Origin: an uncultured Patescibacteria group bacterium
GTDB lineage: Bacteria > Patescibacteriota > Minisyncoccia > Phycocordibacterales > UBA918
Reading direction: 5' to 3'
Length of the DNA stretch: 64,000 nt
NCBI GenBank assembly: GCA_934699595.1
Contig: CAKUWT010000001.1
Location: 289,033-353,032 of the forward strand
How positions within the stretch are numbered: position 1 is the stretch's first letter; each line of letters begins with the position of its first letter. The notes under the pieces are model-generated. The model was not told the DNA's origin, made no database searches, and worked only from the letters and a program-made list of their open reading frames with translations. Of the stretch, positions 12,211-64,000 are shown one piece after another. Position numbers and translations under genes: made by a program.

Positions 12211-12216
12211 AGTACT

Positions 12217-14283
12217 TTAGATAGTCTCAGGATTTTGTCCACTAAGGATTTTCCGTACTGCCTGTTGAGACGGTGCCTTCGACTGTCTGGCTTCGCTATT
12301 ACGCTTCGCTACTTCGAGAGCCTCGAGAGCCTTTTCTGCTTCCTCCAGTAAAACCTCTAGCTTGGCCATACTGGCATGGTCAGTCATGGCTAAGTTGGTT
12401 GCTAAGCTAGCACCAGCGTCACGAGAGCCAGTTTTAGATCTGTTCTTTTCAACTTTCGTAACTCTCTCTGATTGTTTAGAGTTCTGAGCCTCACTATCAT
12501 CCCCAACCTCATTCTTGGTCTCATTACTTTTTTCGGTGGCCTGAAGCACAGCCAGCGCAGCCTGTAATGATTTGCTCTCAGCCGCTTTTTTAGTAGGTGC
12601 ACCAGGATTGCTTTTGCGCTGCTCGTCGGCAGTGAGCTGTCGCAAGATATTTTTTAAATCATCCGATTCGCGAGGCGACTCTGGTCGCTTTGTCTCCGAA
12701 CGAGAATTGTCTCGCTTAGCAGAATTACGCCACTCCGCTGATGGTTTTTTTGAATCCATGCCACTATCTTCACGAGCGGTGCGATTATTTTGCGGAGTCG
12801 TCGCTCTCTCATCACGAGCCGCACTACTTCGCTCATTTTTTTGTGGCCGCTCATTTCGTTGACTTAAACGTGTGTCTTTGTCTTGCGAATTCCCTGCTCG
12901 TGACGACTCCTCACGAGCTCCACTTTCTCGTGGACGATTATCCGGACGTCTCTTCTCGTCTGGTCGTTTATTATTACTCTTCTCTGGACGTTCTGGATTA
13001 TGCAGCAAATTTACCAATTCTTCCACGTACGCTCGTGGTCGGGTGTAATTTTTCCGACTTGCCAAAATCGCCATCTGCTTATAAGAAATGCTCGGTGGCG
13101 ACAGTGGCGGCAAAGTAGTGGCAGAAAATGGCGCTGAACCAATCCCGTCAATCATTAACGACAAATAAATCTGCGCAAAGCCGAGGTTGATTAAATCGGC
13201 CGCCAGGAAAGTGGGAGTAAAAACTGTCTCCAGCACTTCCGCATCAAAAGGACCAACCCTAAAAGCAATGGTGGTACCAACGTTACCAAACACCGCATCC
13301 CGTACCTCCTCTTCCATCTGCTCAATGTACTGGTGAGCGATGATGAGATTCAGGTGATACTTCCGTGCCTCAGACAAAATGTCGGCAAAAGTAGCGTTAG
13401 CAAACGACTGAAACTCATCCACGTAAAAATAGAAGTTGGGCATCTTCCGCATCTGTTCGACAGACAAATCAGCCCGACTCATAGCGGCTAGATAAATACG
13501 AGTGGTGAGCATCGAGCCCAGTAAGTTAGCGTTAGTTTCCCCGATCAAACCTTTGGACAGATTCATAATGAGAATCTTTTTATTATCCATGATGTCACGA
13601 ATATCGAAGCTTGATTTCGGCTGTCCGATAATGTTGCGGATCAAGGGGTTGCCAGTAAACTGACCAATCTTGTTTTGGATAGCAGGCAGCGCTTCAGCAG
13701 CAAAGCGATCAGTGTAGTTAGCAAACTCATCCACCCAAAAAGATTTTACTGCGGGATCGGTAATGTAATCCACTACTTCCTGTCGATATTTTTTATCAGT
13801 AAAGAGTCGATTGACAGAAAGCAGAGTAGTATCGGGATACTCAATCAATGCCAACAGCGCATTGGTAAGAATGTACTCCATTCGCGCACTCCAAGCATCG
13901 ACCCAAATCTTTTTGAAGGTAGACATAAGTCCTGAGACCACCAGATGGCGCTTGTCTGGACCAACGTCTTCCATAACGTTAAAAGAAATCGGATTGTTTA
14001 AATCAAAAGGCGCAAAGTAAATCACATCATTCACTCGCTCTTCCGGAATATACTCCAGCAAAGTCTCAGCGGCACTACCGTGCGGATCAATAAAAGCCAT
14101 CCCTTCGCCATTTTGAATATCCTGTGCCGCCATGTTTTCTAACAAGGTCGACTTACCCATACCCGTCTTGCCGATGACATACATGTGTCGCTGACGATCC
14201 TTAGCCTTAATTCCAAATGAGACGGGTTGTCCGCGGGCGTCGGTCTTCGCAAAATAAGTGATTTTTTCTGGATCAAAGGCCAT
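12217..14283 (-). CDS. TraD/TraG/VirD4-like (AAA_10 / TraG-D_C type) P-loop ATPase with a roughly 260-aa low-complexity, highly charged C-terminal tail
   Basis: A Walker A motif (YVIGKTGMGKST) is present. The motif FYVDEFQSFANATFADILSEARKYHLNLIIAHQ resembles the TraD/TraG C-terminal region. There are no N-terminal TM helices. The last roughly 260 residues are R/E/K/S/N/D-rich. Confidence 0.5.
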   Translation of the reverse strand: MAFDPEKITYFAKTDARGQPVSFGIKAKDRQRHMYVIGKTGMGKSTLLENMAAQDIQNGEGMAFIDPHGSAAETLLEYIPEERVNDVIYFAPFDLNNPISFNVMEDVGPDKRHLVVSGLMSTFKKIWVDAWSARMEYILTNALLALIEYPDTTLLSVNRLFTDKKYRQEVVDYITDPAVKSFWVDEFANYTDRFAAEALPAIQNKIGQFTGNPLIRNIIGQPKSSFDIRDIMDNKKILIMNLSKGLIGETNANLLGSMLTTRIYLAAMSRADLSVEQMRKMPNFYFYVDEFQSFANATFADILSEARKYHLNLIIAHQYIEQMEEEVRDAVFGNVGTTIAFRVGPFDAEVLETVFTPTFLAADLINLGFAQIYLSLMIDGIGSAPFSATTLPPLSPPSISYKQMAILASRKNYTRPRAYVEELVNLLHNPERPEKSNNKRPDEKRRPDNRPRESGAREESSRAGNSQDKDTRLSQRNERPQKNERSSAARDERATTPQNNRTAREDSGMDSKKPSAEWRNSAKRDNSRSETKRPESPRESDDLKNILRQLTADEQRKSNPGAPTKKAAESKSLQAALAVLQATEKSNETKNEVGDDSEAQNSKQSERVTKVEKNRSKTGSRDAGASLATNLAMTDHASMAKLEVLLEEAEKALEALEVAKRNSEARQSKAPSQQAVRKILSGQNPETI

Positions 14284-14353
14284 AACTTAGAATCTATTAT
14301 AGCAAACACTTTATCTTTATACGGGAGAGGTGGCGGGAAAGATACCAATATTT

Positions 14354-15244
14354 TTACTGATTTAGGATATCCTGTTCAGACTTCTTTTTAGAAAAATAAA
14401 TCAGAAGAAAAGCAAAATAATAAATTAACACTACCGCCATTAGATACCAGTACTGATAATCAGAATCATAGTAATTACGATCACTCCTACTGAAAACCTT
14501 AAACACAAAGCTGCCATAAAGCATTATCAGCGGTGAAGAATAGACGGTAAATTTATAAAGATACAAATAAATTACGTCTCCTAAGCGAAAAGACAATAGG
14601 AGCGGGATTAGCAAAATCAGTAATAGTAAAGCTACCTCTGACAGCCCTATAATAAAATAGTCACAATTATAGCCCGACGGGTCAATTATTGGACATAAAC
14701 CTGTCACAGATATCACCACACTGGGCACCTGCAGAAATATAGCAACTAAAAACCAAATAAATGCCTTTCTCTTTAACCTTTTAACTAACAGAGGTTTCTC
14801 AATAGGCCCGTCTTCTACTTTTATTTTACCGCGCTTAATCCCGTAAGCAGTATAAATGATAACTCCTAATGAAATAAGTATATATGCCAAGCAAGCAAAC
14901 AGGGCAAAAATCATTTTGTAATTTATTCCCAACCAATCAGTCTCCACTACCGTAATTGCATAATAGATATAAATTAATAGCAGCGGTATAGCCACTGAAG
15001 CAAATTTAAACCATCTGAGAAAAACTAACTTATCAAATGGTAAAGTTAATAAGAGTGGCAGACTTAATAGGGTAAAGCTTAGTATGAGAGTGTAAGCATT
15101 CTCAAATGTTACGTAACACCGAAAACTATAAGTGTTGTTTGTTGAGCACAGATTACCCACTTCATAAAAGTACATAAAAATAACTACGGGCACGCAAGTA
15201 AGAAAAATCATCAAAAATGTCCACTTGCTAAATAACTTACTCAT
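14354..15244 (-). CDS. polytopic membrane protein (about 8 TM), hypothetical
   Basis: The hydropathy pattern is strongly hydrophobic. The gene shares a 5' leader motif with the next gene upstream. Confidence 0.45.
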   Translation of the reverse strand: MSKLFSKWTFLMIFLTCVPVVIFMYFYEVGNLCSTNNTYSFRCYVTFENAYTLILSFTLLSLPLLLTLPFDKLVFLRWFKFASVAIPLLLIYIYYAITVVETDWLGINYKMIFALFACLAYILISLGVIIYTAYGIKRGKIKVEDGPIEKPLLVKRLKRKAFIWFLVAIFLQVPSVVISVTGLCPIIDPSGYNCDYFIIGLSEVALLLLILLIPLLLSFRLGDVIYLYLYKFTVYSSPLIMLYGSFVFKVFSRSDRNYYDSDYQYWYLMAVVLIYYFAFLLIYFSKKKSEQDILNQ

Positions 15245-15325
15245 ATCAAATTAATTACCTATTAATTAGCCTAGGCCTCAGATCTGATCATATTATTACT
15301 TGGCTTTAATATTTTAAAATAAGGA

Positions 15326-15724
15326 TTATTTAGTCTTATTTTTCCTAGAATTATAAGCTGTGTGCACAGCTACCGCCAAAAAAGCTATAAAGTATGCCAG
15401 ATAAATAAAAGGCAGGAAGGCACTTAAAATATTATATCCTGAAAAATAACCTCCACCAATACTCAAAGCGACGGTTGTATAAGTAAAAATAATGGGAACA
15501 GTCACTAGTGTGAAAAAAGAGCAATTATCAAAAAATTTCCTACTAGAAAAAATAGACATGACACTAAGCGGTAAAACCAAGAAAAAACTCCCCAACAATG
15601 ACCAGGCTATGCTGTTGAGAAATTTATAATTATAGACTTCTCCCAAATAACCAAACCCAATGAAACAGACCAAAAATGTAAAGTTTATTAAAAATACATT
15701 TTTTCTATTTAAAAAATTATTCAT
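15326..15724 (-). CDS. small 4-TM membrane protein immediately downstream of the secreted lipase (candidate immunity/partner protein)
   Basis: Four hydrophobic helices in 132 aa. The gap from the lipase stop codon is 6 bp. Confidence 0.5.
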   Translation of the reverse strand: MNNFLNRKNVFLINFTFLVCFIGFGYLGEVYNYKFLNSIAWSLLGSFFLVLPLSVMSIFSSRKFFDNCSFFTLVTVPIIFTYTTVALSIGGGYFSGYNILSAFLPFIYLAYFIAFLAVAVHTAYNSRKNKTK

Positions 15725-15730
15725 ACCAAA

Positions 15731-18160
15731 TTAATTACCTATTAATAACCTCAATTTCAATTCCAATAGTTGAACAATCAGTTTTAATAGTTCGAGGTAT
15801 TGGGAGTTTGCTTCTATTTCCATTTTACGATCCTCAAAGTGGGTGATATATCCAACAGCTGAGGACCCGGAACTTACTGCCGGCCCCTTACCACCTTCCT
15901 CAAACAACGGTAGAGAAACTGGTCCAAGAAGTGATAGAGCGAGTTCTAGATCAGTAGCACCGTCACCATCATAATCAATAATTAAATCACCAGCTGCGGT
16001 AAGGCTACCATCGGGAAAATCCATACGAGCAAGTGTATCAGGATTGCTAGGAATACCCGAGAAAACACTGTAGTTAATTTGCGTATCCGCTTCGTATTCT
16101 TCTATTTCTAAGGTAAAAGAACCCTCATCGTAACCCGTTAAATAAATTGTGGGATTTGCCTCTTTTGGTAAAGACAGCATCTGCACCTCACCGAAGCGCT
16201 CATACCAGGCTCCAGGAATTTGAGAAACGTTTTGACCTATCTCATTACCACTCTCATCCACAGCTGAGAGATGTAGGGGCGAATGCAATATAAACTGTAG
16301 GCGGTTATCTTTATCGATTACTGGTTGAGCGCCATAGATATACTGAGGTAACGGTGAATTATATTCAAAGATAATATTTTTAAAGATAAAATCATTTAAC
16401 TGTCTTAGGTCAAGAAGATTATGATGACCTTTCCTCAACAAGTCAGGGAGTTCAATTCCAAGAAATCTATTGTAACTATCCAAATCCACCCACCACCTAC
16501 TCACACCTTCACCGTCACCAATAGCCAAAGCGCTCGGCGCCACCACTGTTCCATCACCGTCGTAGACAATTCTTGGTTTGTACGACAGGACTTCTGAGGA
16601 ACAAATTTTAGTAAAGAAATTAACAACTTTTGTAACAAGTTCCCTACAGTCTTCAATGCCCTTATAATCAATACCCGCCAAAGTAGCTTCGCCCACGCCA
16701 GCAATTTGATGTATCTCTATTTCTGGAGGTGGCTCCCAGGCACCTATTTTATTTTGGGCAACTTGAGCGGCCTTAATCAATACTGAATTACCAACTACTG
16801 GTAATTTTAAGTTCGAGCTAGGGGGCTGAGTGCGTCCCTCTGTACCCACCAAAAAATCATGCAGCTCATTAGGAGTAATCGCATAGCCAAATTTATCAAT
16901 AAAAGCTTGAGTAGCGAGACGATCATCAAAAGTTACATAGGGAGTGTAAATACTACTGCCAACACTACCGTAATAATTAGCGAACGGTAATAACTGATAC
17001 ATCCCTGGCATATTGCGAGCAATGTCTCTCGCCCTCTCATCTTTTAATGTGCCTAAAATACCGACCTCATACCCATGCAATAAAGCACCAATAGTTTTAG
17101 GTGTCCCCAGCTGTGGTGTCCCTACCATTACTAATTTATCTACCAAATCTGCCGCCTCACTACCAAGCTCACTCAATAAATACTTGGCTAATAATCCCCC
17201 TTTAGAGTGAGCCACTATTGAAACCTTCCCCGTTGGTGATGAAGCCGCTAAATCACGTAAATTATTTTCAATACTGCCGTCACTTAAAATATCTGAAAAG
17301 GAAAGCCGCCAATCGTAAGGCATCGCCAGATAATCAGTAATCTTACTATTGTTTTTATAATTTTCTAAATCTGCCAAAAAAGATTTGTAAATGTCCACAT
17401 TAAGCAACCCGTGAAAAGTATCAACAACCTCCTTGGCAGTAATACTATTTAGACTTTGTCCTACTTCGTTCAGGTATAGTCTTTGGACATGAGAATCCCC
17501 ACCCTCCCAACGCTGAATTTCTCCTTCAAATAAACGGCTGCCCATAAACCCCGGCAAGAAAAGTACATTTGATACTAAGTCTGAGTTCTCAGTTACAGTA
17601 AATGTAATGGACCGAGTATGAATTGGTTCAGCCTCGTCTGCATAAGCTATAGGGAATAACTGGGTAAAAAGATTAAGGAAACGATTAGATTTATTGAGAG
17701 TTAGGTAACCCTCATAAGAAACTAGAGTATAAGTACCTGTAATAAACTCAGGTAGAGGCTCACCCTCCACTAATACATTTTGGTAGCTACCTCCTTCATG
17801 TCTAAATACCTCTATGTCTAGGTAATTGTAATCAAAATCAGGCGCTATTTTGTAATTGACATACTCACTTAGCCCACCAACAGGAACTTGGATAATAGCC
17901 CCCTGAGTAACTGTTTGTCCATTCAAAGTAATCTGGTGTGGGTAATGTGCATCATTAACTACCTCGACATTAAATGGATTGTTACAATCGAATACCGGAG
18001 TTGTGACTGGCCCCTGCACATAGGAACCGCCATGAACCCAGCTCCAAAAATCTGAACTAATGTTTCCACAGCCGGACTGAGCTCCTGCTAACTGCACCGA
18101 CAGTAGAAGAACTACTAGCAGAGAGCTTGTTAGCTTAATGAGACTTAAAATTCTATTCAT
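15731..18160 (-). CDS. secreted LCAT-like / PGAP1-like alpha/beta-hydrolase (phospholipase/acyltransferase family), about 809 aa
   Basis: A signal peptide (MNRILSLIKLTSSLLVVLLLSVQLAGAQS) is present. The motifs LFLPGFMGSRL and YLAMPYDWRLS (YDWR) and the nucleophile elbow VSIVAHSKGG (GHSxG-type) are present. DGDGTVVAPS is a candidate catalytic Asp. A paralog lies at 61410-63785. Confidence 0.65.
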   Translation of the reverse strand: MNRILSLIKLTSSLLVVLLLSVQLAGAQSGCGNISSDFWSWVHGGSYVQGPVTTPVFDCNNPFNVEVVNDAHYPHQITLNGQTVTQGAIIQVPVGGLSEYVNYKIAPDFDYNYLDIEVFRHEGGSYQNVLVEGEPLPEFITGTYTLVSYEGYLTLNKSNRFLNLFTQLFPIAYADEAEPIHTRSITFTVTENSDLVSNVLFLPGFMGSRLFEGEIQRWEGGDSHVQRLYLNEVGQSLNSITAKEVVDTFHGLLNVDIYKSFLADLENYKNNSKITDYLAMPYDWRLSFSDILSDGSIENNLRDLAASSPTGKVSIVAHSKGGLLAKYLLSELGSEAADLVDKLVMVGTPQLGTPKTIGALLHGYEVGILGTLKDERARDIARNMPGMYQLLPFANYYGSVGSSIYTPYVTFDDRLATQAFIDKFGYAITPNELHDFLVGTEGRTQPPSSNLKLPVVGNSVLIKAAQVAQNKIGAWEPPPEIEIHQIAGVGEATLAGIDYKGIEDCRELVTKVVNFFTKICSSEVLSYKPRIVYDGDGTVVAPSALAIGDGEGVSRWWVDLDSYNRFLGIELPDLLRKGHHNLLDLRQLNDFIFKNIIFEYNSPLPQYIYGAQPVIDKDNRLQFILHSPLHLSAVDESGNEIGQNVSQIPGAWYERFGEVQMLSLPKEANPTIYLTGYDEGSFTLEIEEYEADTQINYSVFSGIPSNPDTLARMDFPDGSLTAAGDLIIDYDGDGATDLELALSLLGPVSLPLFEEGGKGPAVSSGSSAVGYITHFEDRKMEIEANSQYLELLKLIVQLLELKLRLLIGN

Positions 18161-29619: not shown

Positions 29620-31098
<1,479 letters not shown>

Positions 31099-49716: not shown

Positions 49717-49736
49717 GTCTATCTTCAAAACTTTAA

Positions 49737-49845
49737 GTTGGCGCCTACCTACTCTTCCCCAATTAAGGAGTACCATCGGCGATGGAGGGCTTAACTGCCG
49801 TGTTCGGAATGGGAACGGGTGTACCCCCTCCGCTGAAGCACCAAC
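49737..49845 (-). rRNA. 5S rRNA
   Basis: The reverse complement reads GTTGGTGCTTCAGCGGAGGGGGTACACCCGTTCCCATTCCGAACACGGCAGTTAAGCCCTCCATCGCCGATGGTACT...GGCGCCAAC, a conserved 5S core. Confidence 0.8.
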
Positions 49846-50551: not shown

Positions 50552-51296
50552 CATCCCAGGTCCCGTATTACTACGGGGATTGGACTATATGTTCTCCATT
50601 TCAGGAGGTTGACGTTTAGTCTCTACGGGGTCAATATCGTGTTTTTCGTCGTTTAGAGTAATTCAATTCTCTGAAGTAATCAATTTTCTTCAACATTTTA
50701 GTAAAATCCTGCTGAGAACTCAGCTTCTTCTTATCTTCTAAAATCTCAAGCAGTAAATCTGCTTGGAGTCTCTTAAGGAATAAGAAAGGTTTTACTTTGT
50801 CAAGAAAATCAACAAGCTCAGCCTGTTTATTGATTGTAAATTCATACATCTCATCATTTCTTATGCGCAATCTACCGTAACCGATCCTTTCCATCAACTT
50901 TGAAAAGTTGGTATCGGTCGCCTTCTGAAAAAAGGCAACGTAAGGTGCAATTTGGTAACCATATCGATAACTCGAATTTGGTTTTGCGCGCACATAGATA
51001 CTTCCGTCTCCATCTAAGAGACCCGCTAAGTATGCGTAGAAATTTTCTTGATTTGTCGACATAACACTGACTTCCCTCGGTATTATCCTATTTTAACTTA
51101 GGACTCCACCGATATAGTCAACTTCTCTCCACAATATTTCTATTGTGGGCCGCCGTGAATGATGTCTTTTTGAATACTTTTTGGTTAAACCAGTATTCAC
51201 CTCGGGTTTAGATTGGTCGAGCACCTTTTATAACTAAACAGCTACAAAGGTTTCTTTGTCCTTTAAACATTATTAAATAATGGAAAAAGGTGCTCG
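50552..51296 (-). mobile_element. group I intron in the 23S rRNA at the I-CreI-type site (E. coli about 2593, ...TTTAGACCGT^CGTGAGACAG...)
   Basis: The exon junction can be reconstructed from the conserved flanking 23S sequence. The intron ends in G after an exon U. It contains the LAGLIDADG ORF. Confidence 0.6.
50631..51062 (-). CDS. single-motif LAGLIDADG homing endonuclease (143 aa, I-CreI-like)
   Basis: The motif YLAGLLDGDGSI is near the N-terminus. The ORF lies wholly within the 23S intron. Confidence 0.7.
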   Translation of the reverse strand: MSTNQENFYAYLAGLLDGDGSIYVRAKPNSSYRYGYQIAPYVAFFQKATDTNFSKLMERIGYGRLRIRNDEMYEFTINKQAELVDFLDKVKPFLFLKRLQADLLLEILEDKKKLSSQQDFTKMLKKIDYFRELNYSKRRKTRY

Positions 51297-51323
51297 ACGG
51301 TCTAAACCCAGCTCGCGTGACTT

Positions 51324-51356
<33 letters not shown>

Positions 51357-51910
51357 GCTCCAGCCCCAGGATAAGTCGAGCCGACATCGAGGTGCCGAAC
51401 CGTGCCGTCGCTATGGACGCTTAGGCACGACTAGCCTGTTATCCCCAGGGTAACTTTTATCGGGTAATCTCCGGCAGCATCTAAAGCCCACCGTCGGTTC
51501 ACTATGCTCCACTTTCGTGTCTGTTTGACTCCTAAGTCTTACAGTCAAGCTGGTTTATGCCATTACACTATCAGCACGGTTTCCATTCGCGCCTAACCAA
51601 CCTTGAGACCCCTCCGTTACTTTTTAGGAGGGTAGCGCCCCACTAAAACTGCCTGCCACACACTGTCCCTGCCAGGTTTTTCCTAAGCGGGTTAGAGACT
51701 ACCGAATTAAAGAGAGGTATTTCACTGGCGACTCCACGGTACCCGAAAGCCCGCTTCAAAGTCTCCCTCCTATGCTGCGCATTAAGTCAATAGCCCCAAT
51801 ATGAAGCTACAGTAAAGCTCCTGGGGTCTTTCCGTCTAACTGCAGGTAACCGGCATCTTTACCGGTATTGTATTTTCACCGAGCTAGTCCTCGAGACAGT
51901 TTCCCAGTCG

Positions 51911-51950
<40 letters not shown>

Positions 51951-52950
51951 ATACGCTCTATTTTTCCTTCTCCTAAACATCTTGCAAGCAAGATATTTAG
52001 ACATTTCACAATAGGACTCTATCTTAGCCCACGAACCTAAATAAATTTAGTCGTTACGGGCCAGCAACATTTGGTCTCTTGTTGGTTGCTGTTGGACAAA
52101 CTGCACCTTTCAGTACAGTAGGTAACTATGGCTAGGCTATTTAACCTATAATCGTTCCAGTCCTGGAACGTACTTTCAAGAAAAATACGCTCCACCTTAG
52201 AACGATTATAGTTATCGCTGACATTTACCGGGGCTTATACAGCCCAGCAAAGCAATCCGAAGATCACTTCACCATCCGTATTTAACCTTCCGGCATAGGT
52301 CAGGCGTCACCCCCTATACATCCTCTTACGAGTTCGCAGGGAGCTGTGTTTTTGTTAAACAGTCGCCAGGAAATCTTTCGCTGCGGCCTTTCTATCGCTA
52401 GAAAGGCAGGCCTTATCCCTAAGTTACGGCCGCTTTTTTGCCGAGTTCCTTGAGGACCAATCACTCGTTCGCCTTAGTCTTCTCGACCCTACCACCTGTG
52501 TCGGTTTGCGGTACGGAACCATCACGTTTATGCTTAGAAGTTTTTCTTGGAAGCGTGCTCCCTGACATCGGATCGGCCGAAGCCTCACCTTTAGACTGAA
52601 CTCGGAGTATTGCTAGACGGATTTGCCTATCTAGCCTCCTCGAACCTCCAACGGCAATCCAGTAAGCCGCGTCAGGTACAACCCTCCGTCCCTCCATCGC
52701 AACGTAACAGTGTGCAGGAATATTAACCTGCTATCCATCGAGTCCCCCTTTCGGGATTCCCTTAGGACCGACTAACCCTTCGCTGATCAACATAGCGAAG
52801 GAAACCTTGGTATTTCGGCGGGCAGGGGTCTCACCTGCCTTGCGGTTACTTGTGCCGGCATTCTCACTTCTGTACGCTCCAGATGAGGTCTCCCTCACCA
52901 TTCATCGCAGAACAGAACGCTCTCCTACCACTCGTACACTTCATTGAGGA

Positions 52951-53170
52951 TTCAATCATAAACTGATTGAAAAAAGGAAAACTGTTGAGGGAATTCCTTT
53001 AAGGAGCTCCTTAGCACCCCAGTGTAACTGGCCACTCGAGTTTATCTAGAAAACTCTCTTGGATATTATTATATGTGCTTACCTGTGAAGATCAGGAGAG
53101 GTCTCGCGAACCTGGTCCTGCATCAACTGGGTGTTTCCCTCAACAATCTCAGAGACTAGCTCTGAAGTAT
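52951..53170 (-). other. 220-nt insertion (IVS-like) in 23S helix 45, flanked by a perfect 17-bp inverted repeat
   Basis: The arm GTACACTTCATTGAGGA at 52934-52950 is the reverse complement of the arm at 53171-53187. The equivalent E. coli helix is a short hairpin. Confidence 0.5.
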
Positions 53171-53888
53171 TCCTCAATGAAGTGTACGAATTCGCAGTTT
53201 CGGTAATATGCTTGAGCCCCGATCATCTTCGGCGCAAGGACTCTCGATCAGTGAGCTGTTACGCTATCTTTAAAGGATGGCTGCTTCTAAGCCAACCTCC
53301 TGACTGTTTGTGAATCCTCACCTCCTCGTTTGCACTGAGCATATATTTAGGGACCTTAACTGGCGATCTGGGCTGTTTCCCTTTTGACCAATGGAGCTTC
53401 TCCCCCATAGTCTAACTGCCGAGCTATAACCAACTGGTATTCGGAGTTTGATAAGAGTAACGAGATTTCTCCCTGTTTACCCTTTCCAGTGCTCTACCCC
53501 CAGTGGGATCACTCGACGCCAACCCAAAAGCTGTTTCGGAGAGAACCAGCTATTACGGAAATCGATAAGCTTTTCACTCCTTACCACAAGTCATCCCCGC
53601 GTGTTGCACGGCGCGTGGGTTCGGGCCTCCACGACCTTTTACAGTCGCTTCACCCTGCTCATGGCAAGCTCTTTCCGCTTCGGGTCGTACCCCTACCCTC
53701 GAATTGTAAACAATTCATTCGCACTATTCATGCTCGCTTTCACTATGCCTCCGTGGGGTTACCACTTAAACAAAGGATAAAGGTACACTCGCCGGCTCAT
53801 TCTTCAATAGGCACGCCGTCACCCGGATAAATCCAGGCTCCGACTCCTTGTAGGTGTATGGTTTCAGATCTATTTCACTCCCCTCTCC

Positions 53889-53933
<45 letters not shown>

Positions 53934-54909
53934 TTTTAAGGATATTTAGCCTTACCAGTTAGTACTGGTGGATTCATTCAAGCTATTCATGTCTCGAACT
54001 ACTCAGGAGCAAAAACCAAGGAGATGTATAAATTTCAAATACAGGACTATTACCTTCTGTGGTCGAACTTTCCAGATCGTTTTTCTATCTATACATTTTG
54101 TAACTCCTCGCAACTAAATGCTGTCTTTGTCCTACAACCCCATTATTGTAAACAACAATGGTTTGGGCTCTTCCCGTTTCGCTCGCCGCTATTCAGGGAA
54201 TCGCGAGAACCTTCTTCCTGAACATAATGGCGCTCGCGCACCAATGTTCAGAATAAATCCTGAACATGATGCCAAGCATCTGTTCAGAAAGAAAATTCTC
54301 TTTATTGCTTTCTTTTCCTATAGGTACTGAGATGTTTCACTTCCCTACGTTCGCTCTCTCATACAAGAGTACCTGCCGATGGCAGGTGGGTTTCCCCATT
54401 CGGAAATTTCCGGGTCAAAAGTTATTTGGCACCTCGCCGAAACTTATCGCAGCCATATCACGTCCTTCATCGCTCCTTAAAACCTAGGCATCCGCCATAC
54501 ACCCTTACATTCCTGCAAGGAATGCTGTACACCGCTGTACAATTTTATTTGAGTGTTTGTGATCATGAGACCCTACAATAAAATCTCATGACCCTTCTTT
54601 TGTGTGCTGGGGACGAAAAGACCCGTATCGGATAATTGATACTTTATTGGGTCAAACCCAACACACATTTTTACCTGCCACATATTTTAATAAATTAAAA
54701 TATGTGGATGCCAGTGTGCGTCGAACACACTGGACTTGTCGAACCACCCCTTATCAAAGGTGGTTCTGAGAATATGCAGTTTTCAAATAACTGCGTACTA
54801 TTCATTGAAATCTTAGAAAGAAAAATCCGCGTTCTCGCGGCACAAAAAACGAAAGTTATCTGAGCGCGCTGCGTTACTTTTTTCCCAATCCCATAAGTAC
54901 GTGAGTGCT

Positions 54910-59736: not shown

Positions 59737-60060
59737 TCAGACCCGAAAATCTACTCGTGGAGAGACTTCCAAAATCTGTCTTGGCTTCATGGGCAAGTCG
59801 GGGCGGTCATGGTGAGTCACCACTACCGTGATAAGACGGCGACGACGCTCAGTCCCAACTCCTGGAGGATAGGTACTAAAGCGTTCTCGTCCAGAGAGGA
59901 AATCTTTTCCGGCCGCCCGAAGCTTCGCCTGCAAGTCTTCCCCCTCTTGCCAATCGACATACCCGCCACCTAAGCGGTGGTCAAGGTACTCCACCTCCAG
60001 CCCCGCTGAGGTGACCGCCGTGCAGTCACAGATTTTGTCGAAATAAATACGGTACCTCAT
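59737..60060 (-). CDS. hypothetical protein
   Basis: The only evidence is the ORF itself. Confidence 0.2.
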   Translation of the reverse strand: MRYRIYFDKICDCTAVTSAGLEVEYLDHRLGGGYVDWQEGEDLQAKLRAAGKDFLSGRERFSTYPPGVGTERRRRLITVVVTHHDRPDLPMKPRQILEVSPRVDFRV

Positions 60061-60284
60061 CTTGTCCCTCCATTTACTTCCCAGATTCTCTGCTTTGATT
60101 ATTCCTCAAACTAAGGGATTTGTCAATTTTTTGGCGAGCGTCTACCTGTTCCAGCAACTAGACGACCCTAGTTTTTTTAAAACGGTTTTGTATACTAAAG
60201 AACGGCAGTCCGATATCATCGACAGTTATCAAAAAGTAATGTCGCTGACAATAAAGTCAAAATCTGCCAAGTAAAAAGTTTAAT

Positions 60285-60355
60285 CGGGGTATAGTATAGT
60301 GGTAGTATCTGCCCATGGGGTGGGTAAGGCATCGGTTCGATTCCGGTTACCCCGA
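60285..60355 (+). tRNA. tRNA-Pro (anticodon GGG)
   Basis: The sequence folds as a cloverleaf. The acceptor stem CGGGGTA/TACCCCG is 7 bp. U8 is present. The D-loop AGTGGTA carries G18G19. The anticodon stem TGCCC/GGGTA has loop A-U33-GGG-G37-T. The T-arm is ATCGG-TTCGATT-CCGGT. The discriminator is A. Confidence 0.7.
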
Positions 60356-60360
60356 CTAGT

Positions 60361-60417
60361 AGAGCTAACCTAAAACACAACCGCCACTTGGCTTCTGCCA
60401 AGTGGCGGTTGTGCTCT
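60361..60417. terminator. bidirectional terminator between tRNA-Pro and the convergent membrane-protein gene
   Basis: The hairpin acaaccgccacttggc-ttct-gccaagtggcggttgt has an outer agagc/gctct extension and a T-run on the minus strand. Confidence 0.5.
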
Positions 60418-60438
60418 CCAAAAAATAATTAGCAAAAA

Positions 60439-60888
60439 CTACCTCCCCGCCAGTCTCTTCCACAGATATTTTACTACCAAAATTAGGTACGGGATTAAAA
60501 CAAACAGCACGGTGACCGCAATAAGAATCAGAGCACCGATAGCTAGAGAAAATTGGGAATCAGTAGGAATGGGAGAAAAACCGATCTGCTGCCGATTCGC
60601 CGTAAGAGTCAGAACAATATAAAGTGGTATATACCAAATTCCAAAATATTTCCACCACTGCTTATAGGTTACTGTTCGCACCAGCAGCAAGAGTGCTTGA
60701 GATATTAGTATAGCTACAGACAAGGCGTATACATAACTTAAATTTGAACCGACTCGAAGTGGGTACAAAGAAATATTATTCTTCTCTGGCAAAAGATATC
60801 TTATAAAAAGAAAGAACAAAAGTACGATAATAAAAATTACGTATTTATTAAGAACTGATTGGATAGTATTTTCTAGTAATTTTTTCAT
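60439..60888 (-). CDS. small 4-TM membrane protein, tandem paralog B (candidate immunity/partner of lipase 2)
   Basis: The start is taken at MKKLLENT, matching the paralog. Nucleotide identity to 60943-61389 is about 85-90%. Confidence 0.5.
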   Translation of the reverse strand: MKKLLENTIQSVLNKYVIFIIVLLFFLFIRYLLPEKNNISLYPLRVGSNLSYVYALSVAILISQALLLLVRTVTYKQWWKYFGIWYIPLYIVLTLTANRQQIGFSPIPTDSQFSLAIGALILIAVTVLFVLIPYLILVVKYLWKRLAGR

Positions 60889-60942
60889 AATAAAGTATTT
60901 AGTTTCTAATTGATTCAAATTTTAATATAAATAATCATTAAA

Positions 60943-61389
60943 TCACCCTACTCTCTTCCGCCACAAATACTTTACTACAAAAATTAAGTGTGGGATTAGG
61001 ACAAACATCGATGTGACCGCAATAAGAATCAGAGCACCGATAGCCAGAGAGAATTGGGGATCAGTAGGAATGGGAGAAAAACCAATCTGCTGTCTATTCG
61101 CCGTAAGAGTCAGGAAAATATAAAGTGGTACATACCAGGCTCCAAAATACCTCCACCACTGCTTATAGGTTACTGTTCGCACCAGTAACAAGAGTGCTTG
61201 GGATATTAGTATAGCTACTGATAGAGCGTATACATAATCCAAGGTGGTTCCTACCCGCAGTGGGTAAAGGGAGAGTACGTTTCCTTCCGGAAGTAGCCAT
61301 TTTATCAAAAGGAAGAACAAGAGTGTAATAATAAAGATCATATATTTATTAAGAGCCGATTGGATGGTATGTTCTAGTAATTTTTTCAT
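60943..61389 (-). CDS. small 4-TM membrane protein, tandem paralog A
   Basis: MKKLLEHTIQSALNKYMIFIITLLFFLL... Four hydrophobic helices. The gene lies 20 bp downstream of the lipase 2 stop. Confidence 0.5.
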   Translation of the reverse strand: MKKLLEHTIQSALNKYMIFIITLLFFLLIKWLLPEGNVLSLYPLRVGTTLDYVYALSVAILISQALLLLVRTVTYKQWWRYFGAWYVPLYIFLTLTANRQQIGFSPIPTDPQFSLAIGALILIAVTSMFVLIPHLIFVVKYLWRKRVG

Positions 61390-61409
61390 AAAATTTATTT
61401 ATTGCACGA

Positions 61410-63785
61410 TTAAATAAGCCTAGCTTCCAATAAAAGTTTTAGCTGTAGTAACAACTCAAAAAGCTGTTTATATAACTCTATTAGATTGTCTGATTCCAGA
61501 TCACTTTCAGCTACCAGAGGCAAATACCCTCCTCCTGAATTACGCGAGGTCGGTTCTTCAAGCAGATCACTCATAACAGACAAATCGTTCCAACTGTATA
61601 CCTCGTCAATAATGCTATCTCCATCAAAATCAGTTGCAATATCAGAAAACTGCTCTGTTGAAGAATAAGATAAAAATGCCTGTGTATTACTAGAAACTGG
61701 AGTGTAGCCTAAAATATTAACCAACTCCTGAAATCCGTCGTTAAGTGTATGAGCGGTGAGGGCATAATAACCATCATCGGTACCCTGAAGAGCCACCTCA
61801 TAATTACCATTGTCCGGTATTAGAAGGTACTTACTCTCACCTAATTCTAAATAGCGGGAACCAGGAATATCCTCAAGGATATTCCCCTCACTAATACCAG
61901 CCGTCCTGCCTTCCTCATCAGTAACGATAATCTCTACTGGAGAATGAGCGCCCAGTAGCAGCTGTGGCTGTTTTAAAACTAATGGAACCGTCGGCAATTC
62001 TGAATCACCTTTAAAAAGATGGTCAAGAATTTCTATGACCCCATCACTGGACATCATACTTGAGTGATTAACTTCATCCGGAGCAAGATCAACGGTGAAA
62101 CTATTCTTACTACCTAAATACCCCGTAGCCGACTTAACCGCCACAGTTCCATCTCCCCAAACATCAAAATACGGAATTACTTTGAGAGCGGCTAAATCTC
62201 CATTACTATCTGAACAAATTAATAGAGCTACTAGTGGATTACACGGTAGCCTGGTGTAATAAAGTCCAGACAAGGTCGGTAGGTCTCTACCCGCAATTTC
62301 ATAAACCTCGACCTCATCCGGAAAGATAAAGTCTTCCAGTAAGACCTGATCAGGGCCAGCTTGGTTTAATAATCCAATATTAACGTTAGTTGGTCGATTA
62401 AGGCTGACACTCTCGCTTGGAGATGGGCGAGAAGTGTTATTTAAAAAAGCTTCTAGTATGGTTCGGTTGTCTATAGCCGTATTACCGACATAACTATTAG
62501 TTAGCTCCGATCCGTCGGTCTTGATTAGGGCTGGGAATTGATAAGTAGCAAAATATTTCTGACTTGGTAGTAAACTATACGCTACCGGAAAATTTCTCAC
62601 CGCTTCTCGGTTGACACTTCTGCTAGAAAGCAAGTTCTTTAGCCAGTTACTCTCGTAACCATGTAACAACTTAGCCAAAGTTTCTGAAGCGCCATACTGT
62701 GGCGTACCCACCATAATAAAATTATCAACCTTACTTTTGAGACTCTCACCATATTCAGCAAACAGGGCCTTGCCCAGCAAGCCGCCATTAGAATGACCGA
62801 CGATAGTAACCTTGCCAGTTTTTGAAGAAGCCGCCAGTCTCTCTATTTCATCTACCAAATACTTAGTTTCATTCTGATACTGAGTACCATTTTTCACGAT
62901 GCTCGAGACATCATAACGCCAGTCGTAAGCATAGATACCGAAATCATTAATAAACTTTTCAGTATTTTTATACGTATCCAATTTATTGATAAAGGTGTCG
63001 TAAATATCAACCACGGAGTAGGCTTTACGTAAAACATCATTTGTCTTGGTATAAATATTATTTAAACTCTGACCAGTTTCATCCATCATTAATTGTCTTA
63101 CGTCAGTATTACCAAATGGTAGCCAGCGTTCAAACTCTTTTCCTTGCACGCCTTCATAAAGATAACTCCCTTGTATTCCCGGAATGAATAAAATATTGGA
63201 ACCTCCAACCTCTTTCTCCTCCCTAACTACAAACGTGACTCCGTAAAGCATATTCCCCCAATCAGCGTGTGCGGTCGGGATGATAGCGTTTTTTAACCAA
63301 TTCCAGTAGGGGTGACGGTAATTAACTACCACTCTTTGGTCGATTAAAAGTGTGTAAACTCCGGGAGTAAAAACATAGCGGTCAAGGTCATCAGTGGCTA
63401 CCTCATAAAAATCATCACCTCGGTGATGAAATAACCTAAAGTATCGCCATTGAAAAAAGTCTGGATCGGTAACAAAAAAGTAACTAGTATTAGTGTCTAG
63501 GAAAATCTCTGAATCAGCCTCTAAGATTTGATCGTTTAGGAAAACTGCATGGGGTAGATCCCATCCCTCATTATCGAGAAAAAAAGGATTAGCGCAATCA
63601 CTTTCAAGACCTTGGTATTCATTTTTACTAGAGTTAAATGTATAGACAGTACAAGCTTGAGCGGTTGGAGCAAAAAGAAAGAAGATTAATGAGAGGAGGG
63701 TTAAAATAAGTAATTTAATACCGAAAAATCTAGTCGGCTGAAAAACTCTGTTAACTGTTTTAGGAATACCGCTAGTTATTATCAT
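61410..63785 (-). CDS. secreted LCAT-like / PGAP1-like alpha/beta-hydrolase (phospholipase/acyltransferase family), paralog of 15731-18160, about 791 aa
   Basis: A signal anchor/peptide (...LILTLLSLIFFLFAPTAQA) is present. The motifs ILFIPGIQGSYLYEG, IYAYDWRYDV (YDWR), VTIVGHSNGGLLGKALF (GHSxG), WGDGTVAVKSA (Asp) and EVNHSSMMS (His candidate) are present. The C-terminal Leu-rich tail is shared with the other copy. Confidence 0.65.
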   Translation of the reverse strand: MIITSGIPKTVNRVFQPTRFFGIKLLILTLLSLIFFLFAPTAQACTVYTFNSSKNEYQGLESDCANPFFLDNEGWDLPHAVFLNDQILEADSEIFLDTNTSYFFVTDPDFFQWRYFRLFHHRGDDFYEVATDDLDRYVFTPGVYTLLIDQRVVVNYRHPYWNWLKNAIIPTAHADWGNMLYGVTFVVREEKEVGGSNILFIPGIQGSYLYEGVQGKEFERWLPFGNTDVRQLMMDETGQSLNNIYTKTNDVLRKAYSVVDIYDTFINKLDTYKNTEKFINDFGIYAYDWRYDVSSIVKNGTQYQNETKYLVDEIERLAASSKTGKVTIVGHSNGGLLGKALFAEYGESLKSKVDNFIMVGTPQYGASETLAKLLHGYESNWLKNLLSSRSVNREAVRNFPVAYSLLPSQKYFATYQFPALIKTDGSELTNSYVGNTAIDNRTILEAFLNNTSRPSPSESVSLNRPTNVNIGLLNQAGPDQVLLEDFIFPDEVEVYEIAGRDLPTLSGLYYTRLPCNPLVALLICSDSNGDLAALKVIPYFDVWGDGTVAVKSATGYLGSKNSFTVDLAPDEVNHSSMMSSDGVIEILDHLFKGDSELPTVPLVLKQPQLLLGAHSPVEIIVTDEEGRTAGISEGNILEDIPGSRYLELGESKYLLIPDNGNYEVALQGTDDGYYALTAHTLNDGFQELVNILGYTPVSSNTQAFLSYSSTEQFSDIATDFDGDSIIDEVYSWNDLSVMSDLLEEPTSRNSGGGYLPLVAESDLESDNLIELYKQLFELLLQLKLLLEARLI

Positions 63786-64000
63786 AATTATTACAATGGA
63801 AAATTTTCTAAACTAATTAAGTCTCTAGGTTCTTTAACTTTCAATTAAACTGCCTGGGATTTGGCACTGATGACTACTACTAGGAGCAAGACCACCGCAA
63901 TCACAGTAATAAAATTTAGGACAAAATTAAGAAAATCTTTGTTGAACATAATGAAGAATAAGTGTAGTGATTATAACACGGTGTTTTGTGGCGCGGCGAA

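Follow-up and report, generated by a model that had tools for sequence, protein, structure and literature searches.

TslA and TslM are lipase toxins of Staphylococcus aureus. Both are exported by the T7SS, via LXG-like domains and Lap partners, and both are encoded in variable genomic islands (PMC10730906, PMC13560087). Immunity to TslA is provided by TilA, a lipoprotein with a globular extracellular lipase-binding domain (PMC10730906). Immunity to TslM is provided by TilM, a single-pass protein comprising a signal anchor plus DUF1433, with a globular extracellular domain that likewise binds the lipase; here a membrane protein sets the precedent for conferring immunity to a lipase toxin (PMC13560087). 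In the T6SS Tle-Tli pairs (e.g. Tle4-Tli4, PDB 4r1d) an alpha/beta-hydrolase phospholipase gene adjoins its cognate partner gene, and the Tli proteins are soluble or lipoprotein periplasmic binders. In the LipA-Lif (LipB) systems of Pseudomonas, Burkholderia and Acinetobacter, a secreted lipase of family I.1/I.2 is followed by a small, co-transcribed, membrane-anchored foldase. The foldase has one transmembrane (TM) helix and a large periplasmic alpha-helical scaffold that embraces the lipase (e.g. LipA:LipB, 9g8u). Finally, the enzymes LCAT and LPLA2 (PLA2G15, PF02450) act at membrane or lipoprotein surfaces.

Here, we analysed 64,000 nucleotides of DNA (the window) from an uncultured Patescibacteria group bacterium. 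Two loci in the window each encode an LCAT-like secreted lipase and, behind it, small polytopic membrane proteins whose genes are locally duplicated, as the initial annotation had proposed. The features of both loci are listed in Table 1. Locus 2 resembles TslA-TilA and TslM-TilM in several respects. The producer is monoderm, the lipase is a predicted secreted phospholipase A with a predicted helical C-terminal region, and the adjoining gene encodes a small membrane-attached partner with variable paralogous copies. Self-protection would likewise be needed at the outer face of the producer's membrane. Conversely, the lipase here has a Sec signal peptide and a conserved core gene context without T7SS genes. 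The partner is a 4-TM bundle that exposes approximately 34 residues rather than a globular domain, and neither S. aureus system has sequence similarity to the pair described here.

Table 1. Features of the two lipase loci, with positions numbered from the first nucleotide of the window.
Feature	Position	Strand	Basis
Locus-2 lipase gene, 791 aa, LCAT/LPLA2-family alpha/beta hydrolase	61410..63785	-	ORF; Pfam LCAT 48.9 bits
Predicted Sec-type signal peptide, residues 1-44; predicted cleavage after TAQA, mature N-terminus Cys45	63654..63785	-	sequence features
N-terminal beta-sandwich domain, residues 45-190, conserved DC.NPF motif	63216..63653	-	model strands
Catalytic alpha/beta-hydrolase (LCAT/LPLA2-like) domain, residues 195-600	61986..63203	-	triad, LPLA2 alignment
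Triad codons Ser332; Asp545; His574	62790-62792; 62151-62153; 62064-62066	-	codons checked
C-terminal beta-sandwich domain, residues 608-730, DxDGDxxxD acidic motif at end	61596..61964	-	model strands, pLDDT about 90
Leu-rich amphipathic C-terminal helix, residues 766-791	61413..61490	-	model helix H766-790
4-TM partner gene a, 148 aa, N-in/C-in	60943..61389	-	ORF; four-helix model
4-TM partner gene b, 149 aa from ATG at 60888	60439..60888	-	tandem paralogue of gene a
Intrinsic terminator hairpin after partner b	60376..60413	-	predicted energy
tRNA-Pro(ggg), convergent with locus-2 operon	60285-60356	+	tRNA search
Locus-1 paralogous lipase, 809 aa	15731..18160	-	Pfam LCAT 74 bits; full-length alignment
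Locus-1 partner, 132 aa, 4 TM, divergent family member	15326..15724	-	leave-out profile
Locus-1 partner, 296 aa, about 7-8 TM	14354..15244	-	leave-out profile

Locus 2 is a three-gene operon in which the lipase gene is followed by partner genes a and b and then a terminator. All of its open reading frames were found where the initial annotation had placed them. Partner gene a begins 20 nt past the lipase stop codon. For partner b, the mechanical open reading frame (60439-60918) has a TTG start and encodes 159 aa. More likely, translation begins at the ATG at 60888, which lines up with the gene a start and gives the 149-aa product that the public assembly's gene caller reports as well. The terminator has a perfect 17-bp stem, an AGAA loop and a following UUUU tract (predicted energy -39.5 kcal/mol, z -9.75). 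The operon and the convergent tRNA gene share this one hairpin.

The N-terminus of the 791-aa lipase reads as a basic n-region, a 20-residue hydrophobic core and an AxA site; inspection of the sequence found no lipobox. An AlphaFold2 model of the protein (pLDDT 81.9) places a helix at residues 21-37 of this region, with low pLDDT. The pattern AQ(A/T)..CG recurs in most homologues, and signal-peptide-like N-termini are found throughout the family. We infer that the signal peptide is cleaved and the enzyme exported.

Pfam LCAT (PF02450, gathering cut-off 21 bits) matched both the 791-aa protein (48.9 bits) and the 809-aa protein of locus 1 (74.0 bits). The best Foldseek matches to the model were LPLA2 (4x97; E 7e-14, TM 0.70) and LCAT (6mvd; TM 0.67), and every one of the top eleven PDB matches was a chain of LPLA2 or LCAT (E 7e-14 to 3e-10, target TM 0.58-0.71). 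A profile of 30 homologues gave the same two families when compared with PDB sequences (LPLA2, 1.5e-5; LCAT, 1e-4). Residues S332 (GHSNGG), D545 (GDGTV) and H574 are invariant among 30 homologues; aligned to LPLA2, they correspond to its HSMG, GDGTV and EH segments, and the triad occupies HSxG, GDGTV and H motifs. By its Foldseek matches, the model also has an alpha/beta-hydrolase core of the LCAT-type fold, with cap and membrane-binding insertions. We class both proteins as predicted LCAT/LPLA2-family serine hydrolases with intact Ser-Asp-His triads and Sec signal peptides. Identity to LCAT and LPLA2 is only about 16%, and the host here is bacterial (Patescibacteria). The additional beta-sandwiches at both ends, the amphipathic C-terminal helix and the pairing with a 4-TM gene also set the locus-2 enzyme apart.

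Neither beta-sandwich domain was matched in Pfam searches. In the N-terminal domain, C64 and P67 are nearly invariant among 30 homologues; in the C-terminal domain, an alignment of homologues showed conservation of S615, P616, G626, D719 and D723. A disordered linker (residues 735-767, model pLDDT below 50) precedes the C-terminal helix. The 809-aa paralogue, homologues P0002 and P0003 and others end in similar short Leu-rich tails, and further homologues have a longer helical C-terminal domain in place of the tail. The family numbers more than 572 homologues, nearly all from Patescibacteria.

The lipases of the two loci had been called paralogues on the basis of motifs, namely LF(L/I)PG, YDWR, HS(N/K)GGLL, MVGTPQ(Y/L)G, GDGTV and the Leu-rich tail. 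All of these were present in both proteins, and pairwise alignment extended the relationship end to end, far beyond the motifs (30% identity, E 5e-71, 793 columns, query residues 63 to 787). In the 809-aa protein, HSKGG is at position 318 and GDGTV at 535. Its closest relatives are long Moranbacteria-type lipases (43-44% identity).

We next considered the partner proteins. Partners a and b share 82% protein identity (122/148) and 80% DNA identity, slightly below the 85-90% given in the initial annotation. The description of two tandem four-helix membrane proteins held. An AlphaFold2 model has helices H2-32, H49-67, H72-99 and H111-147 (pLDDT 79.7), and the charge distribution also fits four helices. 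The loops outside the cell average 21 and 13 residues, and neither the model nor the topology contains a globular extracytoplasmic domain able to bind the lipase. Members of the family are about 120-160 aa in length and have four TM helices, an N-in/C-in topology, an F/Y-x-x-W motif after TM2 and a basic C-terminal tail. Conservation is lowest in extracellular loop 1 (0.96 bits), which has a Cys pair in 33 of 52 members. The most conserved residues (F/Y75, W78 and W85) lie at the cytoplasmic side, away from the enzyme. No invariant polar or charged intramembrane residue was found in the family alignment, a pattern more in keeping with a binding or scaffolding role than with catalysis or transport.

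The membrane proteins of the two loci had been described as non-homologous. Pairwise BLASTP indeed finds no similarity between them (E at least 0.58), but this does not hold for profile and hhalign comparisons. A profile built only from other genomes matched the locus-2 partners (148 aa, E 1e-11; 149 aa, E 1e-14) and also those of locus 1 (296 aa, E 4e-8; 132 aa, E 9.5e-4, over a full-length alignment). The two partner clades were joined by hhalign with 90% probability (E 1.5e-6). The 296-aa and 132-aa proteins matched each other pairwise (E 1.4e-4), and the best pairwise match of the former was the partner of locus L071 (1.5e-7). On these comparisons, the membrane partners of both loci are divergent members of one unannotated family. 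The family has 1849 cluster representatives, none of which had a match in Pfam or NCBIfam.

At locus 1, the gene for the 132-aa partner lies 6 nt 3' of the lipase gene. In the 296-aa protein, the N-terminal half (residues 8-138) is a partner-family member by the leave-out profile. The C-terminal half is collinear, without significant similarity, and is probably a decayed second partner unit; proteins of 265-290 aa with two matched stretches occur elsewhere in the family. A VirD4-like ATPase encoded next to locus 1 is not conserved beside other family members. Both window loci have a G+C content below that of their surroundings.

The initial annotation had expected the small genes to be linked to the lipase in related genomes, and a synteny survey bore this out. 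Among 77 fetched Paceibacteria loci, counted at species level, 65 have a family member directly 3' of the lipase gene, with gaps of -17 to +33 nt. The partner is single in 56 loci and present in 2-3 copies in nine; fused partner doublets also exist. In seven loci an unrelated 3-TM ORF takes the partner's place, and four lack any small membrane gene. An iterated HMM search seeded by the 148-aa protein alone, run over 2198 ORFs, converged on 80, each encoded on the same strand as a lipase gene and immediately 3' of it. Reverse look-ups from partner proteins found an LCAT gene 1-18 nt upstream in 3/3 cases, and the roughly 80 loci contained no orphan partner arrays.

Lipase and partner also diverge together (Mantel r 0.56, reached by 0/999 permutations), with the partners diverging faster (median identity 23%, versus 38% for the lipases). 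For each partner in the window, similarity is highest to the partners that accompany the nearest relatives of its own lipase. These patterns suggest that lipase and partner are inherited as a unit that was co-duplicated in this genome. The module is conserved across Paceibacteria/Parcubacteria, tiny uncultivated bacteria, with two copies here. Its adjacency could still reflect conserved gene order without functional coupling. Given linkage in 65-73 of the 77 loci despite very different neighbourhoods, minimal intergenic distances or overlapping genes, co-divergence and co-duplication, we regard this as highly improbable.

The pair keeps company with housekeeping genes. In 18 species rplJ lies co-directionally downstream, and the pair often precedes rplJ-rplL; other neighbours encode tRNA synthetases, TruB, BipA and enolase. 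None of the neighbours at the family loci examined is a T6SS or T7SS gene. The tandem partner copies represent an old duplication that has evolved under purifying selection (dS 0.71, dN/dS 0.17).

These observations bear on the proposal of a polymorphic toxin-immunity locus. The lipase would then be antibacterial, the 4-TM proteins would be fast-evolving, duplicating immunity proteins and the whole would be an accessory island driven by an arms race. Consistent with this, small and faster-diverging membrane genes directly follow that of a secreted lipase, tandem copies and fused doublets occur, unrelated TM ORFs can take the same slot and both window loci are lower in G+C than their surroundings. 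TslM-TilM provides a precedent. Furthermore, the T6SS effector Tle4 is the next structural family after LPLA2 and LCAT (Foldseek E 2.8e-9, TM-score 0.42), although T6SS delivery is absent here, and a Pfam Tle3 match is far under threshold (11.3 versus 27 bits). Against the proposal, synteny with rplJ-rplL and housekeeping neighbours is kept over many species, the duplicates are old with a low dN/dS, all window partners belong to one family and orphan partner arrays did not turn up among the 80 or so loci. The lipase carries a Sec signal peptide rather than a T6SS, T7SS or CDI delivery domain, and its surroundings contain no genes for such secretion systems. We consider a toxin-immunity locus unlikely. 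The "rapidly evolving" label of the initial annotation does not fit the housekeeping contexts and purifying selection; nor is the arrangement a typical effector/immunity signature, with neither a specialised secretion system nor a globular lipase-binding domain in the partner.

The place of the small membrane gene immediately 3' of the lipase gene, an order shared with lipA-lif operons, could instead mark its product as an export or maturation helper rather than a partner of the mature enzyme. Its size, several TM helices and basic C-terminal tail recall holins. Against holin-type release, the lipase and its homologues have their own N-terminal signal peptides, so no holin is needed. Against a Lif-type foldase, the partner has four TM helices and no soluble domain with which to embrace a lipase. 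The lipases served by Lif are not of the LCAT type and match weakly (TM no higher than 0.5). A helper role of either kind is very unlikely.

A further explanation is lipid acquisition or membrane building. The enzyme would harvest host acyl chains or lysolipids, and the 4-TM protein would be the receiving end rather than a protective factor, presenting an acceptor lipid or taking up or flipping the product into the symbiont membrane. In a variant, the enzyme would make the cell's own lysolipids and so relieve membrane curvature stress. LCAT-family enzymes, including LCAT and LPLA2, are transacylases as well as hydrolases, and the fold and triad here match theirs. The module has a wide, core-like distribution and evolves under purifying selection, and the partner has a conserved aromatic belt at the inner membrane interface. 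CPR bacteria, which do not synthesise fatty acids or lipids, show enrichment in lysolipids (PMC7242380), and no mechanism of lipid uptake or breakdown has been identified in Patescibacteria (PMC11665869). Conversely, the partner lacks the invariant polar, charged or catalytic residues usual in a transporter or flippase. A transport component would not usually diverge so fast in sequence, nor give way to unrelated small TM ORFs in some lineages, as this partner does. We view this explanation as possible but doubtful. The stronger claim, that enzyme and partner jointly make up the lipid-acquisition system still missing for Paceibacteria, is a long shot. In such a system, an extracellular transacylase, independent of ATP and ACP, would strip acyl chains or lysolipids from host phospholipids, the 4-TM protein would supply a docking or acceptor site and the symbiont membrane would be built or remodelled. 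If true, this would explain both the absent lipid synthesis and the lysolipid-rich membranes of CPR bacteria.

The explanation that we prefer, tentatively and at a little short of an even chance, is an ancient, vertically inherited module of a secreted phospholipase/transacylase and a cognate partner in the producer's membrane that protects or docks. The lipase would leave the cell by the Sec route, with a cleavable signal peptide. Outside, it would act on phospholipid membranes, most likely those of a host or neighbour, as an LCAT/LPLA2-type serine phospholipase A or transacylase, and would either release lysolipids and fatty acids or transfer acyl chains. The 4-TM protein would sit in the producer's own membrane, co-evolving with its lipase. 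By physical contact, it may keep the enzyme off the cell's own exposed membrane, dock it there, or both; a role in self-protection is plausible.

Several observations count against this protecting or docking module. The exposed 34 or so residues are a very small surface with which to neutralise a 600-residue enzyme, and, by analogy, known lipase immunity proteins would lead one to expect a globular extracytoplasmic domain. The most conserved partner residues are predicted to lie at the cytoplasmic side, not facing the enzyme. The four loci without a small membrane gene, and the seven with an unrelated ORF, are further exceptions. In addition, some Paceibacteria are reported on archaeal hosts, and archaeal ether lipids are not cleavable by such an enzyme.

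A phospholipase A could generate the lysolipids in which CPR bacteria are enriched. The pair is an undescribed candidate for how bacteria unable to make lipids may work host membranes without harming themselves.

Two genes for small four-helix (4-TM) membrane proteins, partner a and partner b, follow the lipase gene of locus 2. The three open reading frames lie where the initial annotation had placed them, and are listed with the other features in the table below. The ATG of partner b at position 60888 lines up with the partner a start and gives a protein of 149 aa. Downstream of partner b, a hairpin faces a convergent tRNA-Pro. Hence, the transcription unit comprises the lipase gene, partner a, partner b and a terminator. 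Directly upstream of the locus-2-type lipase is a membrane gene of the Na+/Ca2+ exchanger family, both in the source genome (L001:8790-9707) and in its closest relative (L003:4392-5351).

Coordinates of features in the window, in the lipase model and at lipase loci fetched from other genomes (L0xx)
Feature	Position	Strand	Remarks
Lipase gene, 791 aa	window 61410-63785	-	ORF
Partner a, 148 aa	window 60943-61389	-	ORF, starts 20 nt past lipase end
Partner b	window 60439-60918	-	ORF from TTG
Codons 27-51 of the 4-TM genes	window 60736-60810 and 61237-61311		
Terminator hairpin	window 60376-60413		3' of partner b; 17-bp perfect stem; -39.5 kcal/mol, z -9.75
Lipase model: hydrophobic helix	N-terminal		AlphaFold2
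Lipase model: first beta-sandwich	residues 44-190		AlphaFold2
Lipase model: hydrolase domain	residues 195-600		AlphaFold2
Lipase model: second beta-sandwich	residues 608-730		AlphaFold2
Lipase model: disordered linker	between second beta-sandwich and terminal helix		AlphaFold2
Lipase model: amphipathic terminal helix	residues 766-790		AlphaFold2
Locus-1 3' neighbours: VirD4/TrwB-like coupling ATPase; Lamin-tail + PKD protein	window 10726-14283	-	
rRNA-region features	window 29638-31097, 51240-54518, 49736-49845, 50631-51062	all -	
3-TM ORFs in the partner slot	L053:6940-7299, L055:6911-7189, L056:6946-7227, L062:7004-7294, L067:6910-7194, L072:6917-7246 and 7272-7619, L086:5206-5502		
DUF1360 protein, examples	L010:6644-7123, L012:8649-9140, L013:7443-7925		also at 15 other loci

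The 791-aa lipase had been proposed to be a paralogue of the 809-aa lipase of locus 1 (15731-18160). This holds: the proteins align over 793 columns with 30% identity (E 5e-71), both pass Pfam LCAT (PF02450) and each motif quoted in support of the claim is present in both. An alignment of 30 homologues shows no variation at S332 (GHSNGG), D545 (GDGTV) or H574. Searched against PDB sequences, the corresponding profile matched human LPLA2 and LCAT, and the three motif segments align. The AlphaFold2 model of the 791-aa protein (pLDDT 81.9) has LPLA2 (E 7e-14, TM 0.70) and LCAT (TM 0.67) as its top structural matches; the T6SS effector Tle4 comes next, at a distance (TM 0.42). Neither beta-sandwich region, N-terminal or C-terminal, matched Pfam when searched by itself. 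The C-terminal domain closes with an acidic DxDGDxxxD motif that could bind Ca2+. Read from sequence, the N-termini of the family resemble Sec signal peptides that lack a lipobox and would be cleaved at AQ(A/T). The lipase is an LCAT/LPLA2-family hydrolase with an intact triad and a predicted Sec-type export route. Its homologues, at least 586 species-level matches, carry names such as Paceibacterota, Kaiserbacteria, Nomurabacteria and Moranbacteria. These names place the window in a Patescibacteria (CPR) genome of the Paceibacteria/Parcubacteria group. A metagenomic scaffold of 400-454 kb carries the identical lipase. The lipase adds a new bacterial branch to an enzyme family already known; literature searches combining LCAT, lipase or phospholipase with CPR, Patescibacteria or Parcubacteria returned no description of it.

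A word-indexed protein search with the 148-aa partner matched only the protein itself and its paralogue. This apparent lack of relatives is misleading, since positional orthologues and profile searches revealed a large family. The closest lipase homologues, P0002 (50% identity) and P0003 (42%), each have within 5-11 nt of their 3' end a gene for a 143-153-aa membrane protein visibly similar to the 148-aa protein. We fetched 80 loci from species-representative genomes, out of the at least 586 matches. With the 148-aa window protein as its sole seed, an iterated HMM search was then run against all of their ORFs of 70 aa or longer from either strand (2198 in total). It converged on 80 of these, each just downstream of a lipase gene and on the same strand as that gene. 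Among the 77 lipase genes with sufficient downstream sequence, 65 have an adjacent family member (gaps of -17 to +33 nt), so the linkage proposed for the window extends to related genomes. One further member, at L078, overlaps the lipase gene owing to a miscalled start. Most loci (56) carry a single copy downstream of the lipase; 6 loci carry two copies and 3 carry three. In 7 of the 77 loci the slot holds a 92-119-aa 3-TM ORF, with no relation to the 4-TM family detectable by HMM or hhalign; either non-orthologous displacement or divergence past recognition would account for these. No small membrane gene occupies the slot in 4 of the 77. Reverse look-ups from partner proteins led in three of three cases to an LCAT gene 1-18 nt upstream, in housekeeping surroundings. 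The 4-TM protein is a dedicated, co-inherited companion of the lipase, and the genes form an operon. We found no description of this strict pairing in the searchable literature.

Other genes occur near some of the lipases. At 18 fetched loci, a well conserved membrane protein of 159 aa that matches DUF1360 (Pfam E 1.5e-20) is encoded shortly 3' of the pair, often preceding rplJ. The 64-kb window lacks this protein, a possible third component of the pair's neighbourhood. The neighbours of locus 1 are a VirD4/TrwB-like ATPase (688 aa) whose long basic tail is of low complexity, and a secreted 494-aa protein with Lamin-tail (LTD) and PKD domains. Apart from one LTD-like match at L066, neither was found beside other family lipases. 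Hence, both were excluded from the module. Six loci (L076, L047, L052, L060, L049 and L027) are deposited as Micavibrio, Bdellovibrionales, Campylobacterales or Patiriisocius MAGs. Their G+C content (0.31-0.49) is CPR-like, as are the neighbouring genes of L076, the sole contig inspected for these. The names are probably binning or labelling errors and we therefore make no claim, from the Micavibrio, Bdellovibrionales and Campylobacterales labels, that the pair occurs in predatory bacteria.

The initial annotation had described the membrane partners of the two loci as unrelated. This is understandable, because pairwise BLASTP between locus-1 and locus-2 partners detects no similarity; it does not survive profile comparison. 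A profile from which all window sequences, L003 and L005 had been left out matched the 149-aa (1e-14) and 148-aa (1e-11) proteins of locus 2, residues 8-138 of the 296-aa protein of locus 1 (4e-8) and the full length of its 132-aa protein (9.5e-4). Just one additional ORF was matched at E <= 10. The 296-aa and 132-aa proteins also match each other pairwise (1.4e-4). Finally, hhalign of the locus-2 clade against a disjoint locus-1 clade alignment gave 90% probability (E 1.5e-6), collinear from TM2 to TM4. Taken together, these results place all of the partners in one family. We also asked whether the second half of the 296-aa protein represents another unit of the family. It aligns collinearly, at scores that are not significant (HMM E 36; half-versus-half BLAST E 0.055), and we offer only as a suggestion that it may be a decayed unit.

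An exhaustive HMMER search found 1849 partner cluster representatives, nearly all of 120-160 aa, with a few of 265-290 aa that contain two matched units. Pfam and NCBIfam searches of the window partners, and Pfam searches of 33 family members, gave nothing credible. Unannotated until now, the partners define a new family of small membrane proteins. For the 148-aa protein, the model (pLDDT 79.7) shows a bundle of four helices. Family members concentrate their Lys and Arg residues at both termini and in loop 2, which gives them an N-in/C-in topology and leaves about 21 and 13 residues in the outside loops. The best-conserved positions are aromatic (F/Y75, W78 and W85, at the inner end of TM2/TM3), and no conserved charged intramembrane residue was found. 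Loop 1 is the region of lowest conservation; 33 of 52 members have at least two Cys residues there. Lipase tail type was compared with this Cys pair as a hint of contact, and dropped, the tails being heterogeneous with no clear pattern.

Lipase and partner share their closest relatives. The locus-1 lipase is nearest to long Moranbacteria-type lipases (43-44% identity), and the 296-aa protein to the partners of those same enzymes; the locus-2 partner is nearest to partners of the nearest locus-2 lipases. Lipase identity is correlated with partner identity across 68 pairs (Mantel r 0.56, reached in 0 of 999 permutations). Shared vertical descent contributes to this correlation. One main rival explanation is that gene order alone is conserved, lipase and partner being functionally uncoupled. 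The partner diverges faster than the lipase (median identity 23% versus 38%). In 18 species, as in the window, rplJ is co-directional and 0.4-3.8 kb downstream of the lipase; hence the locus-2 arrangement is ancestral. Both lipase loci are lower in G+C (0.36-0.41 at 14001-18000; 0.39 at 60001-64000) than most of the window (about 0.45-0.58). They may have been acquired horizontally, or the bias may come with coding for membrane and secreted proteins. Elsewhere in the window, the 16S, 23S and 5S rRNA genes are unlinked, with 16S about 20 kb from 23S. The 23S match exceeds the Rfam model by ~350 nt, which suggests an insertion, and the interval between 23S and 5S contains an ORF for a LAGLIDADG homing endonuclease of 143 aa.

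The tandem partners had been described as 85-90% identical and read as part of a rapidly evolving locus. They do lie 3' of the lipase, with slightly lower identity (82% for protein, 80% for DNA), and they do not look like rapidly evolving genes: the test for positive selection gave an overall dN/dS of 0.17 with dS 0.71. Divergence peaks in codons 27-51, covering the end of TM1 and loop 1 (dN 0.35); no ratio is given here because dS is saturated. For codons 52-143, dN is 0.055 and dS 0.41. Gene conversion affecting the 3' part could explain this mosaic, as could change in loop 1 that is relaxed or diversifying.

Patescibacteria (CPR), which account for a large share of bacterial diversity, cannot synthesise fatty acids or phospholipids. 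Without lipid synthesis of their own, CPR cells show an enrichment of lysolipids, apparently taken from neighbouring cells according to lipidomics (PMC7242380). No mechanism of lipid uptake or breakdown is known in these cells (PMC11665869). A phospholipase A could generate the lysolipids. We rate the module as a secreted lipase with a cognate membrane partner, and what we say of the function of either protein we infer. The lipase would act extracellularly, with phospholipid membranes as its target. As a presumed monoderm, the producer has its own membrane exposed, so the partner would either shield that surface from the enzyme or dock the enzyme there. Two further main rivals give the partner another role, as the receiving end of a lipid-harvesting machine, in keeping with the lysolipids of CPR cells, or as an export or folding helper for the lipase.

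The remaining main rival is a true polymorphic toxin-immunity locus, close to the effector/immunity signature first read into locus 2. TilA and TilM, the lipase immunity proteins of monoderms, act via globular extracellular domains and are encoded in variable islands with T7SS export (PMC10730906, PMC13560087). The module described here has no globular extracellular partner domain and no T7SS export. As for a variable island, the conserved synteny with rplJ speaks against one, and the multi-copy loci and the unrelated 3-TM ORFs in the slot speak for one. The module may work somewhat like an effector-immunity pair, yet it departs from that class in several respects.

The module is conserved and widespread, and joins an exported LCAT/LPLA2-type enzyme to a dedicated, hitherto unannotated membrane protein. 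For annotation, one shared partner family replaces the impression of unrelated partners at the two loci. The pair is a clonable two-gene candidate for how CPR cells deal with or attack membranes and leave their own intact, and offers a testable handle on CPR lipid biology.
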